A stretch of 63,536 bases of DNA, the filler included, from an uncultured Methanosarcinales archaeon (lineage in GTDB: Archaea > Nanobdellota > Nanobdellia > Woesearchaeales > CAXGTL01): NCBI GenBank assembly GCA_964535955.1. It is 6 parts of 6 records of this genome, joined end to end, with 100 filler letters (N's around TTAATTAATTAA, not from the genome) between each part and the next. Parts side by side here need not be neighbours in the genome. Positions count along the whole stretch, not along the records: positions 23,295 to 37,439 come from CAZHVK010000019.1; 5 more parts are not named here. The stretch is one strand, 5' to 3'. Of this stretch, positions 26,861 to 29,830 are shown one piece after another. The position numbers and the translations under genes are program-made. A model generated the notes under the pieces. The model ran no database searches and was not told where the DNA came from. It was given only the letters and a program-made list of their open reading frames with translations. Every line of letters starts with the position of its first letter. Positions within the stretch are counted from its first letter, which is position 1.

Positions 26861-26931
26861 AATAATCTATTTTATATGATATGTATATATAAAGCTTTTG
26901 TATGCTTCTATTAGAATTAAAGTAAAGCATA

Positions 26932-26991
26932 TATTAACAAGTAATAAAGCGTATTAACAAGTAATCAAGCATATTAACAAGTAATCAACAA
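26932..26991. repeat. Three tandem 20-bp repeats (TATTAACAAGTAATmAAsmr)
   Basis: Units start at 26932, 26952 and 26972 in the divergent intergenic region. Confidence 0.85.
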
Positions 26992-27021
26992 ATGATAAAC
27001 AAATAATAAACAGATTAATAT

Positions 27022-27138
27022 AGTATGTGCATAGCGCCAGTATTGGCAAGGGAGCAAAGGTTAGAATTGTAAAACCTAACTGTTACTCAATTTGTTATTG
27101 TATGCACATTGAGTATGCGAACGAGCTATGCACGTACT
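27022..27138 (+). ncRNA. Putative structured non-coding element (ncRNA or MITE-like), copy 1
   Basis: Closing stem AGTATGTGCATAGC/GCTATGCACGTACT, GCC-N6-GGC hairpin, AAGGGAGCA, stem TACTCAAT/ATTGAGTA, TGCGAACGAGC. Same layout as 29666..29830. Strand guessed from G-U wobbles. Confidence 0.6.
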
Positions 27139-27214
27139 TAATATAGATAATTTTATATATTAATCAAACATTAGAGATACTAGACAACAATTAATAAAAA
27201 AAACAGGTGAATAA

Positions 27215-29293
27215 ATGTCAGATCTAATAATAGGTAAAGATTTACATGGAAAACAATTCAAACTACCTAGTAATGTATTAAAAAAACACCTTATTGCACT
27301 TGGCAATTCTGGTTCTGGAAAAACAGTTTTATGCAAGACAATTATTGAAGAAGCTTCGATAAAGGGAATTCCATGCATTCTTGTTGATCCTCAAGGTGAT
27401 TTAGCATCTCTAATCAAACCATTGAGTTCTGAAGAAGCTAAAAAGCATAAAATTGATATGAAAAAAGTAAATTCATACAAGAACAAAACAAGAATAACAA
27501 TCTTTACACCAACTTCATCAAAAGGAATTCCAATCTCAATCAATCCTCTTAAACTACCTACTAAAAAAATTGATAAAGAAGATTTAGTAGGAATCATTAA
27601 TCAAATCTCTTCATCTATCTGCAATGTTATAGGGTATAAACAAGACAAAGCAAAAGCAGCAGAATCTTTGCTCTATCTATTACTAATGCATTGTTATAAA
27701 AATAAGATACAACTTAACACATTCAATAAACTGATTGATATGATTATTAATATGCCTGTTTCTTTGAAAAAAGATGCAAAGCAGTTAATGCCTGATACAA
27801 ATGAGTTGGTCAGGAAATTGAAGTTCTTGACAATCGGTGAAAAGGAATTATTGTTTCAGTTTGGTGTTCCATTAGATATTGAGATGTTGTTAGGCAAAGG
27901 TGTTAAAAAAACACAGGTTTCCATAATCTACTTAAACAGTCTTAATAATTTAAAAGATAAACAATTCTTTTTATCAACATTGTCAACAGAATTATACAAA
28001 CACATGCTGATGCACCCTTCTAAATCTCTGCAAGCATTGTTTTATATTGATGAAATTTCTCCTTATCTTCCTGCAGGTGCGCTCAAACCAGTAACAAAAC
28101 CTATCCTAAAGCTGTTGTATAAACAAGCTAGAAAATATGGAATAGGTTGTATTGTTGCAACCCAAAATCCAGGTGATATTGATTATACTGCTTTTGCACA
28201 GTTTGGTACATGGTGCATTGGAAGGCTCACAACTAAACAGGATAAAGCAAAAATAAAAGGTGCTTTAGAATCACTTGCTGCAAACCAGCTTAACTCAATC
28301 TTAACAAAAATGTCAAAACTAAAACCAGGTGAATTCATTGTTTTTAGTCCAGATATTTTCAAAAAAATTCAAGACATAAAAGTAAGATGGTTACTGACAG
28401 ATCATTCTACTTTAAATGATGTTGAGGTTAAAACTTTAACAACTGACGAACTTAGGAAAGAATATGATAAATTCATGGTAAAAAAGATTGAACAGGATAT
28501 GGAAAATGTTGAAGAAGAAGTTAAGGATGTTAATGTTAAGAAAGGTGAAGACCTTCACCTGCCTCTTGTGATCACAAAAGAAAAAATTAGCAAGATGGTC
28601 GAGAAAAGTAAAAAAAAGAAATTTATTTTATTTGGAAAAAAGACAGAGAATGTAGAAAAATTTAAATTAGAACTTTACCCTTTATTTTTAGTGACTGTCC
28701 GTAAACATGAATCAAAATTTCTTGGTTTGAAAAAAGAAGTTAATGAATATAAAATATTTTTTGATGGGTTTGACGGTGAACTTGTTCGTTTTAAAAGCAA
28801 CAAGATTAAGTCATACAAAGAAACAATCGACATAATGAAATTAACAGAGACAGAACAGCTTATCTTTATCCAATTATTGAATAATAAGAAGATGACATCA
28901 CAGGAAGTTGGTATGAAACTTGGTCTAAGTGATGCTTTTGTCAACAAAACATTGCATGACATGACTAAGAAAAAAGCAGTAACTTATGAAAAGATTCCTA
29001 AGACAAAAGCTTTTGCTTGGAAAACTTTGATTGATGTTGATTTCTCATCTAAACTTAAAAAATTAGTTTACATACCTGAACTAGTTGATGATGAAATCAA
29101 TGCAAAAAAATTGTCACCAAAAGTTGATCTTGGTCTGCTTGGCAGGTTTGTTAGGATATGGTTTAAAGGAGAGATTGTAGAGGCTGAGATTGTTTACATA
29201 CCAGTTTATAGTATCACTTTAGTTTCTAAAAACAAAAAAAGACAGTTAAGAATTGATGGAGTTTCTGGAAAAGAGTTTAAGGTTTATGATTGA
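27215..29293 (+). CDS. HerA/FtsK-superfamily ATPase (DUF87/DUF853-like) with C-terminal winged-helix region
   Basis: Walker A GNSGSGKT, LVDPQGD, Walker B FYIDE, ARKYGIGCIVATQNPGD; AGGTGA RBS; HTH-like TSQEVGMKLGLSDAFVNKTL. Confidence 0.88.
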   Translation: MSDLIIGKDLHGKQFKLPSNVLKKHLIALGNSGSGKTVLCKTIIEEASIKGIPCILVDPQGDLASLIKPLSSEEAKKHKIDMKKVNSYKNKTRITIFTPTSSKGIPISINPLKLPTKKIDKEDLVGIINQISSSICNVIGYKQDKAKAAESLLYLLLMHCYKNKIQLNTFNKLIDMIINMPVSLKKDAKQLMPDTNELVRKLKFLTIGEKELLFQFGVPLDIEMLLGKGVKKTQVSIIYLNSLNNLKDKQFFLSTLSTELYKHMLMHPSKSLQALFYIDEISPYLPAGALKPVTKPILKLLYKQARKYGIGCIVATQNPGDIDYTAFAQFGTWCIGRLTTKQDKAKIKGALESLAANQLNSILTKMSKLKPGEFIVFSPDIFKKIQDIKVRWLLTDHSTLNDVEVKTLTTDELRKEYDKFMVKKIEQDMENVEEEVKDVNVKKGEDLHLPLVITKEKISKMVEKSKKKKFILFGKKTENVEKFKLELYPLFLVTVRKHESKFLGLKKEVNEYKIFFDGFDGELVRFKSNKIKSYKETIDIMKLTETEQLIFIQLLNNKKMTSQEVGMKLGLSDAFVNKTLHDMTKKKAVTYEKIPKTKAFAWKTLIDVDFSSKLKKLVYIPELVDDEINAKKLSPKVDLGLLGRFVRIWFKGEIVEAEIVYIPVYSITLVSKNKKRQLRIDGVSGKEFKVYD

Positions 29294-29311
29294 TTATGAT
29301 TTTGTATTTGT

Positions 29312-29659
29312 TTAATCAACAAATTTAATCTCATTAATAATTATCTGAGGCTCATTATTATATTCATCAACCTTGCCAATTATTTCTACCAAGTCTCCTT
29401 TCTCGATAGTGATATTGCCTTTCTTAAACAACAATGCATTCACCTTTGCTTTTTCTGATATTTCTATAAACATTACTTTGTCTCTGTCAGTGACTTTTGT
29501 CACCATTCCAGTCACTTTAACTGATTGCTCAATATCTCCCATTGTTATTTTATCTATTTGTTTGTCACCTATTTCTATGCTTTGTGCTAATATGAAGAGA
29601 AGTATGAGGCCTAGTAATGAGCCAATTATTGATATTTTTTTTAAGGTTTTTTCTTGCAT
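29312..29659 (-). CDS. Membrane-anchored OB-fold protein
   Basis: MQEKTLKKISIIGSLLGLILLFIL anchor; VKVTGMV...GDLVEIIGKVDEY OB-fold pattern. Confidence 0.8.
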   Translation of the reverse strand: MQEKTLKKISIIGSLLGLILLFILAQSIEIGDKQIDKITMGDIEQSVKVTGMVTKVTDRDKVMFIEISEKAKVNALLFKKGNITIEKGDLVEIIGKVDEYNNEPQIIINEIKFVD

Positions 29660-29665
29660 TTTAAA

Positions 29666-29830
29666 GTGTATGTGGCGCCTGTTAAGGCCTGTCATAAATG
29701 CAGAGCATTTATGAGCATGATCAGAAACCCACTGGTTTCTGACAAGTGAGCACAAAGATTAATGGTGACACTGTTGGAACTTTTCATGTGACAATATTTA
29801 GGATGAAAAGTGCGAACGAGCCACATACAC
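29666..29830 (+). ncRNA. Putative structured non-coding element (ncRNA or MITE-like), copy 2
   Basis: Closing stem GTGTATGTGGC/GCCACATACAC, GCC-N6-GGC, two extra perfect hairpins, AAGTGAGCA, stem CTTTTCAT/ATGAAAAG, TGCGAACGAGC. Confidence 0.6.

Follow-up and report, generated by a model that had tools for sequence, protein, structure and literature searches.

A family of structured inverted-repeat elements in the order Woesearchaeales

Two copies of a folded, noncoding repeat

The DNA analyzed here, a stretch of 63,536 nucleotides (the window), comes from an uncultured archaeon of the order Woesearchaeales (assembly GCA_964535955.1) and corresponds to contigs C18 and C19 in our numbering of its genome, G000. 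Among genes for a Cys-rich zinc-ribbon protein, a HerA-like ATPase with a TrmB domain, an OB-fold protein and LonB, it contains two stretches of common architecture, at positions 27022 to 27138 (copy 1, C19:3729-3843) and 29666 to 29830 (copy 2, C19:6372-6536), which we found to be members of a large repeat family, very probably one of mobile, nonautonomous elements. Both stretches were sited as described in a first-pass annotation made from the sequence alone, and both folded far better than shuffled sequences, copy 1 at -42.1 kcal/mol (z = -4.85) and copy 2 at -65.4 kcal/mol (z = -7.72), with 0 of 200 shuffles equal in either case.

The GCC-N6-GGC hairpin and the 8-bp stem of unrelated sequence that had been noted were present in both copies, as were AAG[G/T]GAGCA, at 27048 and 29744, and the 10-mer GCGAACGAGC, which occurs exactly twice in the window (27117 and 29812) against 0.03 occurrences expected from shuffles. 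The like orientation of the copies, their position between divergent genes and the 6-nt gap between copy 2 and the start codon of the OB-fold gene (CAT at 29657-29659) were likewise recovered. TATA-like boxes do adjoin the copies, but they lie in flanking DNA and, on sequence reading, are better taken as promoters of the neighbors than as part of the repeat. The segments of the two copies, with helices named P1 to P5 and junction strands J2/3 and J3/1, are the following.

27022..27138, plus strand: copy 1, short form, interior type B (P5 = UACUCAAU/AUUGAGUA); match to covariance model R1 of 100.1 bits, E = 2.7e-23
27015..27023, no strand: copy 1 left direct repeat TTAATATAG, a target-site duplication that shares its final 2 nt with the outermost pairs of the closing stem
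27138..27146, no strand: copy 1 right direct repeat TTAATATAG; 9-nt flank repeat abutting the ends (C19:3728)
27022..27035, plus strand: copy 1 P1 5' strand, the left terminal inverted repeat, pairing with 27125-27138
27036..27047, plus strand: copy 1 P2 hairpin GCCAGUAUUGGC; in the family, P2 is 98% paired, with 2 of 4 pairs changed on both sides
27048..27056, plus strand: copy 1 junction strand J2/3, AAGGGA (consensus CAGUGA), then P3 5' strand GCA
27057..27083, plus strand: copy 1 P4 hairpin, GGUUAG (27059-27064) with CUAACU (27076-27081); tip UUGUAAAA, consensus UCGUAAGA (GNRA-type loop)
27084..27115, plus strand: copy 1 P5 hairpin, 8-bp stem with A-rich loop; in the family, 92.2% paired, with 6 of 8 pairs changed on both sides
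27116..27124, plus strand: copy 1 P3 3' strand UGC, then junction strand J3/1, GAACGA
27125..27138, plus strand: copy 1 P1 3' strand, the right terminal inverted repeat
29666..29830, plus strand: copy 2, long form, interior type A; model match partial owing to the insert
29666-29676 with 29820-29830, plus strand: copy 2 P1
29677-29688, plus strand: copy 2 P2
C29689 plus 29745-29749, plus strand: copy 2 J2/3
29690..29744, plus strand: nested 55-nt double-hairpin unit, TG-TCA..TGA-GCATGA-TCA..TGA-CA, between C1 and A2 of J2/3
29750-29752 with 29811-29813, plus strand: copy 2 P3
29780-29787 with 29803-29810, plus strand: copy 2 P5
29814-29819, plus strand: copy 2 J3/1

Fold architecture and covariation

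The fold is closed by P1, which measures 11 to 14 bp in the home genome and up to 18 bp elsewhere, and P2 is a hairpin, GYC-UGUAA-GRC, with a GNRA-like loop. CAGUGA and GAACGA face each other in a noncanonical helix (A.G, G.A, U-A, G-C, A.G, C.A) with tandem G.A pairs. The U-A pair of this junction (U41-A115) becomes C-G in four copies, and a kink-turn reading of the junction strands was rejected as incompatible with that covarying pair. The GCA that follows AAGUGA covaries with the UGC that precedes GAACGA (GCA/UGC, GUA/UAC, GAA/UUC, GCC/GGC, GUG/CAC, ACC/GGU and AAA/UUU), thus defining a 3-bp helix, P3, which leads into a second junction carrying P4, whose tip UCGUAAGA is a GNRA-type loop, and the 8-bp P5 with its A-rich loop. 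By their P5, interiors can be divided into two types, type A with CUUUC.. and type B with GCUC... The junction nucleotides are near-invariant and better conserved than the inverted-repeat ends: P1 falls into different sequence classes (GTATGTGCAT, ATGAAAC.., GGTGCAACCC and GGCTAATATGAAACCC), whereas CAGUGA, UCGUAAGAC and GAACGA persist across genomes. The 11-mer TGCGAACGAGC, previously called invariant, is found in both window copies and has 7 exact matches, and more with one mismatch, in the 1.49-Mb, 29.7% G+C home genome, but family comparison showed it to be composite rather than one motif, its UGC being a P3 strand and its GAACGA a junction strand, with the final two bases opening the closing stem. 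CTGTT, also proposed as a conserved motif, is not kept across the family.

In alignment A3, which comprises 37 short copies, 85.5% of the cells pair, compared with 63.6% in shuffles, and covariation reached 0.547 against 0.185 in shuffled alignments, a value attained by 0 of 500 shuffles and well outside the slid controls (at most 0.139); 36 of the 41 pairs changed on both sides. These data bear out the earlier suggestion that the structure is under selection. Pairing amounted to 97.9% in P1, 98.0% in P2, 96.8% in the junction helix together with P3, and 92.2% in P5. The column model of P4 reached only 43.4%, and P4 therefore rests on per-sequence folds with the UCGUAAGA tip. Much of the closing-stem covariation arises because the closing stem is the inverted repeat. 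An alignment of 35 copies drawn from 12 further genomes had 95.2% of its cells paired and a covariation of 0.815, values that lean toward the model since this alignment was fitted to it. The stems contain 23 G.U pairs versus 5 A.C "pairs," thus identifying the listed plus strand as the folding strand.

No known family was matched. Rfam 15 gave no match at the gathering score over the whole window, none to either copy at E values up to 10 and no consistent match to 20 diverse copies. ARAGORN, a weak test for this genome, found no tRNA or transfer-messenger RNA gene in the window, and the fold is unlike a tRNA cloverleaf, with junction strands of 6 nt each and a closing stem of 11 to 14 bp. None of four RNA sequencing runs covered either window copy with reads.

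Family size and distribution

Whereas only two copies had been recognized at first, the home genome holds 56 at E <= 1e-3 by covariance model R1, which was built from alignment A3; a relaxed script returned at least 34 copies and a sequence profile about 55 loci. The copies are 113 to 172 nt long, with no transposase gene inside. The closest pair in G000 is 88% identical and the median identity is 56%, and the approximately 55 sequence-level matches are all full-length and all fold. No sequence of more than 250 bp is repeated in G000 at over 90% identity, indicating that its assembly includes no active insertion sequence.

Model searches found the family in 7 of 61 relatives (the home genome included), in 7 of 151 genomes sampled from the order (E <= 1e-5) and in 5 of 151 genomes of a phylum-level draw. 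In total, at least 13 genomes are carriers, that is, the home genome and 12 more; all belong to the same order, represent at least eight families and have 1 to 56 copies each. The genome samples overlap, and the carrier counts are lower bounds.

Ends, target duplications and empty sites

The closing stem P1 is at the same time the terminal inverted repeat of the element (11 to 18 bp). In two carriers, G240 and G235, the copies are near-identical and often break contigs. Reading of 13 such loci revealed perfect 9-bp direct repeats outside the ends at 10 of them, repeats with one mismatch at 2 and an imperfect repeat at 1. All 13 young loci have the outer ends GGCTN...NAGCC, which lengthen P1; the end sequence of copies of this type is GGCTNNKWWGAAACCC. 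In the home genome, flank repeats of at least 8 nt accompany 11 of 55 copies, compared with 72 of 2,970 controls in which the left flank was paired with the right flank of another copy, and repeats of at least 9 nt accompany 8 of 55 copies, compared with 21 of 2,970 controls. The detected repeats abut the ends, and the count is conservative, the ends of about 8 copies having been mis-set by the script.

We then compared 15 element loci from three sister species with G000. Seven are also occupied there (at 4 loci), four are ambiguous and four are empty, the flanks in G000 being 5 to 64 nt apart with a single copy of the duplicated target in the alignments. At the locus of copy 2, sister species G002 has the short form and G003 retains no more than a 3' remnant. 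Copy 1 and the HerA-like gene behind it are without a DNA-level counterpart in the three sister genomes. [quoted passage not shown]

Some further loci carry related ends. L109 (G240:C57:20017-20065) is an element of which only the two ends remain, separated by "NN" and bordered by the 9-bp flank repeat GTGAAAGAA; most likely it represents an assembly gap within a copy, not a natural deletion. L106 and L107 (G235:C14:14657 and C93:11734) are another short element, with the end GGTTAATATGAAACCC in common and a hairpin interior, GTAATTCTGAT..ATCAGAATTAC; on the basis of this sharing, one set of ends may serve several mini-element types.

Turnover between related species

Five syntenic comparisons (partial in the case of copy 2) yielded 17 pair-keeping and 0 pair-breaking two-sided changes, together with 3 one-sided breaks. 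At C1:4152, the flanks and P1 are common to G000 and G002, but one of the two genomes has a type B interior and the other a type A interior. Each of the four species of the genus has a family member at the site C1:9671-9783 (syntenic with L054, L065 and L071), and in G001 and G003 its orientation relative to the flanks is reversed, reflecting either a flip through the inverted repeats or an independent reinsertion. P1 classes and interior types were found in all combinations. Syntenic divergence, interior swap, inversion and mixed combinations together point to frequent conversion, replacement or reinsertion.

Gene context and strand polarity

The first-pass annotation had considered a cis-regulator among other readings, but the data do not support this one. 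No protein family recurs beside the copies, with no more than 8 pairs of weak relatives among 104 neighbors, and orientation relative to genes varies: by crude gene calls, 23 copies are sense and 11 antisense between tandem genes, while divergent gene pairs flank 16 and convergent pairs 3. Several antisense copies are within 10 to 20 nt of a gene start.

Contig C1 has its 15 copies without exception on the minus strand, and on C2, C3, C4, C9 and C13 every copy is on the plus strand. For comparison with base composition we used a strand component, r, defined as the mean skew of plus- and minus-strand genes within 15 kb on either side, which removes the coding-strand effect (about 0.2). Of 53 copies, 47 had the folding strand on the C-excess strand and 6 did not, and a further 3 copies could not be assigned (binomial P = 6e-9, a value that treats the copies as independent, which those on one contig are not). 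No contig majority contradicts this rule. In G249, a genome from another family in four contigs, the 17 copies are uniformly oriented within each contig, and the rule held in 10 of 11 sampled 20-kb regions, r being near zero in the remaining one. Because only 53% of the coding bases are on the G-excess strand, we state the polarity relative to skew and not to the leading or lagging strand. A difference in stability between the two strands was rejected as the cause of the polarity, being too small (-19.3 versus -18.0 kcal/mol with DNA parameters). Orientation bias tied to replication is described for classical insertion sequences (PMC3971601).

As for the window itself, positions 27215-29293 encode a 692-amino-acid HerA/DUF87-type ATPase with a C-terminal TrmB-like winged helix, preceded by an 846-amino-acid Cys-rich zinc-ribbon protein. 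Neither gene has a DNA-level counterpart in the three sister genomes, and the locus thus looks like a variable region. Immediately upstream of copy 1, the divergent intergenic region contains three tandem direct repeats of about 21 nt (26926-26990, consensus approximately GCRTATTAACAAGTAATMAA).

Candidate mobilizing enzymes

When G240 and G235 were searched for the terminal-repeat pattern, the only matches were mini-elements, solo ends, copies at contig ends and another mini-element type, and no split copies with a long interior were found in G000. Genes of the DDE_Tnp_1 and DDE_Tnp_1_5 families (G240 and G094) were rejected as partners because their ends are unrelated. None of 5 carriers contained IS1595 and none of 13 contained IS256; the TnpB TNB domain is absent from G000, and the Y1 family was not searched. 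One sub-threshold match to the reverse transcriptase family RVT_1 (18.6 bits, E = 9e-4) was seen in a 614-amino-acid open frame (G000 C3:3761-3976, L009).

Comparison with known systems

A census of archaeal MITEs places a Woesearchaea genome among the archaea richest in them (PMC11602168). We found no published description of the element or its fold in the archaeal and DPANN MITE literature, although the supplementary lists of that census, which possibly list members, were not opened. The kind of element is already known, while the element itself and its fold are without a description that we could find.

Folded MITEs described in prokaryotes include bcr1 of the Bacillus cereus group, ERIC of the enterobacteria and Correia/NEMIS of Neisseria (PMC3184786, PMC10969869). 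As these are portrayed there, our family resembles them in its length of about 100 to 170 nt, its intergenic location, its inverted ends and short flank duplications, and in positions not conserved between relatives; bcr1, a transcribed mobile repeat, is further described as having compensatory changes that keep an RNA structure (PMC3184786), a feature also seen here. The duplication is 9 bp here, compared with the 5 bp given for bcr1 and the TA given for ERIC. Our family differs from all three in a fold with two junctions and five helices, in junctions more conserved than the subfamily-variable inverted repeat, in its archaeal host, in a median identity of 56% at which all copies nevertheless fold, and in a strong polarity relative to strand asymmetry.

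Palindrome-associated elements derived from IS200/IS605 and REP/BIME elements are described as mobilized in the form of folded single strands by HUH Y1 enzymes (PMC5027513). With them the family shares a strand-specific fold, freely covarying stems and an orientation tied to replication, but they have neither inverted ends nor a target duplication, and the family has both. Inverted ends, a fixed 9-bp duplication in young copies and a family-specific orientation bias instead recall classical DDE insertion sequences; such elements need no covarying internal fold, however, and no transposase with matching ends was found. GGCT ends and a 9-bp duplication are characteristic of IS903-type elements, and the only IS903-like gene among the carriers has ends unrelated to those of the family. 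Integron attC sites are recognized by structure on one strand, measure about 60 to 140 nt and occur many times per genome. The family is similar in size, in number per genome and, as we propose, in recognition of structure over sequence on one strand, but its copies are dispersed instead of arrayed, have target duplications and carry junction motifs unrelated to the attC core sites.

Interpretation and rival explanations

The best explanation overall, to which, taken whole, we would give an even chance, is a large, old and still turning-over MITE-like family with a conserved strand-specific fold and polarized copies; its identity as a mobile, nonautonomous element, taken by itself, is very probable. 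As the element has no coding capacity, its transposase must act in trans, and about 9 bp of target are duplicated at insertion. We further propose, tentatively and with rather less confidence than in the family as a whole, that the element needs its fold in cis for its own propagation and is read as a folded single strand by the mobilizing machinery. What is recognized would most likely be single-stranded DNA in its folded state or else the nascent transcript, the reader being either the transposase acting in trans or a replisome-linked host factor, and copies that lose it would stop spreading and be replaced or deleted. Such a requirement would explain why the junction nucleotides are better conserved than the repeat sequence, and we favor it because the junctions surpass the ends in conservation, the stems vary freely, the folds are intact in any transcriptional context and the family turns over.

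Several observations weigh against a fold needed in cis. Inverted repeats together with a duplication fixed at 9 bp characterize ordinary DDE transposition of double-stranded DNA, for which a folded strand is not required; three copies have 14- to 16-bp repeats instead (C6:16093, C3:141761 and one in G094). The copies of the home genome are old, as seen from their identities, and their intact folds could mean host selection; detection by the model, moreover, favors intact copies. Both the GNRA-type loops and the tandem G.A pairs belong to the classic motifs of RNA, and sense and antisense strands are nearly alike in stability when DNA parameters are used. The polarity alone is no argument for single-stranded DNA, since classical insertion sequences show such a bias. 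Finally, a cognate autonomous element was not found in G000, G240, G235 or G094, fragmented assemblies that may miss insertion sequences.

The RNA motifs, together with the G.U excess, would be typical of a payload acting at the RNA level, in which the fold is a cotranscribed module that alters the processing, stability or insulation of flanking messages and makes insertions tolerable or useful. bcr1 and ERIC would be precedents, an effect on the processing or stability of flanking messages having been proposed for ERIC, Correia and bcr1 repeats (PMC3184786), and in tandem contexts sense copies outnumber antisense ones by 23 to 11, with 17 of the 26 copies behind a co-oriented gene lying at most 14 nt from the stop codon. 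The 11 antisense and 16 divergent copies, several of the former between promoter region and start codon, nevertheless have scores no lower than those of the rest; an internal promoter-like box is not conserved, as far as can be read from the copies themselves, no gene family recurs beside them, and orientation tracks strand asymmetry more closely than gene direction. We regard an RNA payload as somewhat unlikely, though not far behind a fold needed in cis. Host-level selection on each copy, as stable small-RNA genes, a ribonucleoprotein component or a protein sponge, would account for about 55 matches that are all full-length and fold despite a median identity of 56%, and for the pair-keeping double changes between syntenic copies of different species. 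It sits poorly with the patchy occurrence in the order (7 of 151 and 5 of 151 sampled genomes), with presence and absence among sister species, including one locus reduced to a decayed remnant, with copy numbers from 1 to 56 and with the near-identical, recently inserted copies of G240 and G235. The TATA-like boxes about 25 nt upstream of some copies, which could be counted in its favor, lie in target DNA outside the element, and we consider a domesticated family improbable.

Type III hammerhead ribozymes have the core strands CUGANGA and GAAA around three helices. The core of our element has the same helix order (an open helix, a hairpin, a strand ending in UGA, a branched helix and a strand starting with GAA), its tandem G.A pairs on the middle helix resemble G8.A13/A9.G12, and its junction nucleotides are nearly invariant; judged from sequence, it might thus be a self-cleaving ribozyme of an undescribed class with that topology. 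We find this very improbable. The junctions are CAGUGA and GAACGA, the equivalent of A14 forms a covarying Watson-Crick pair (U-A to C-G) that is disallowed in a hammerhead core, and no Rfam ribozyme model (hammerhead, twister, twister-sister, pistol, hatchet) matched the window region or 20 copies at E values up to 10. Identity with the type III hammerhead itself was rejected on account of the differing core strands and the covarying U-A pair in place of A14.

If the fold is needed in cis, a new archaeal mode of transposition could be envisaged, in which an enzyme would read the folded strand (the two-junction core plus any paired stem) and make a staggered 9-bp cut in one fork orientation, or in which the core would be a cis-encoded RNA cofactor of the transposase; we judge this unlikely, if less so than domestication. 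Recognition of a folded strand would be shared with integron integrases and with the TnpA of IS200/IS605, the staggered 9-bp cut and the fixed orientation with neither.

MITEs are usually seen as decaying shells of which only the ends matter, whereas here the ends vary and the interior is kept, as a five-helix, strand-specific fold that persists across genera through double substitutions and interior swaps. Were the transposition machinery to read the fold, the family would represent a structure-guided transposon in an archaeal lineage whose mobile DNA has hardly been studied; were it active as RNA, it would be a mobile structured RNA module. In practical terms, it offers about 100 natural variants for structure probing and a marker for strain-level insertion typing. 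It also calls for caution in the discovery of RNA genes, as closing-stem covariation can arise from inverted repeats.

A nested double-hairpin mini-repeat

The two extra hairpins reported for copy 2 are present (29690-29744) but are not part of the element; they make up a unit of another repeat family that is inserted within it, and this 55-nt unit is absent from the syntenic copy 2 in G002. Double-hairpin units with covarying stems occur at about 11 places inside family copies, where they sit next to P2, within P2, in P4 or in the P5 loop, and at about 20 places elsewhere in G000; related genomes gave many matches too. The unit is thus a second, independent mini-repeat family, which inside the element survives only at loop and junction positions. 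Stand-alone units in G000, of about 50 to 55 nt with the 6-nt linker NCATGN, include C8:40756-40805, C9:34425-34474, C9:7952-8001 and C17:4153-4202, besides about 15 more, and some of them share longer inverted flanks (CTGTGATG...CACATCAA).

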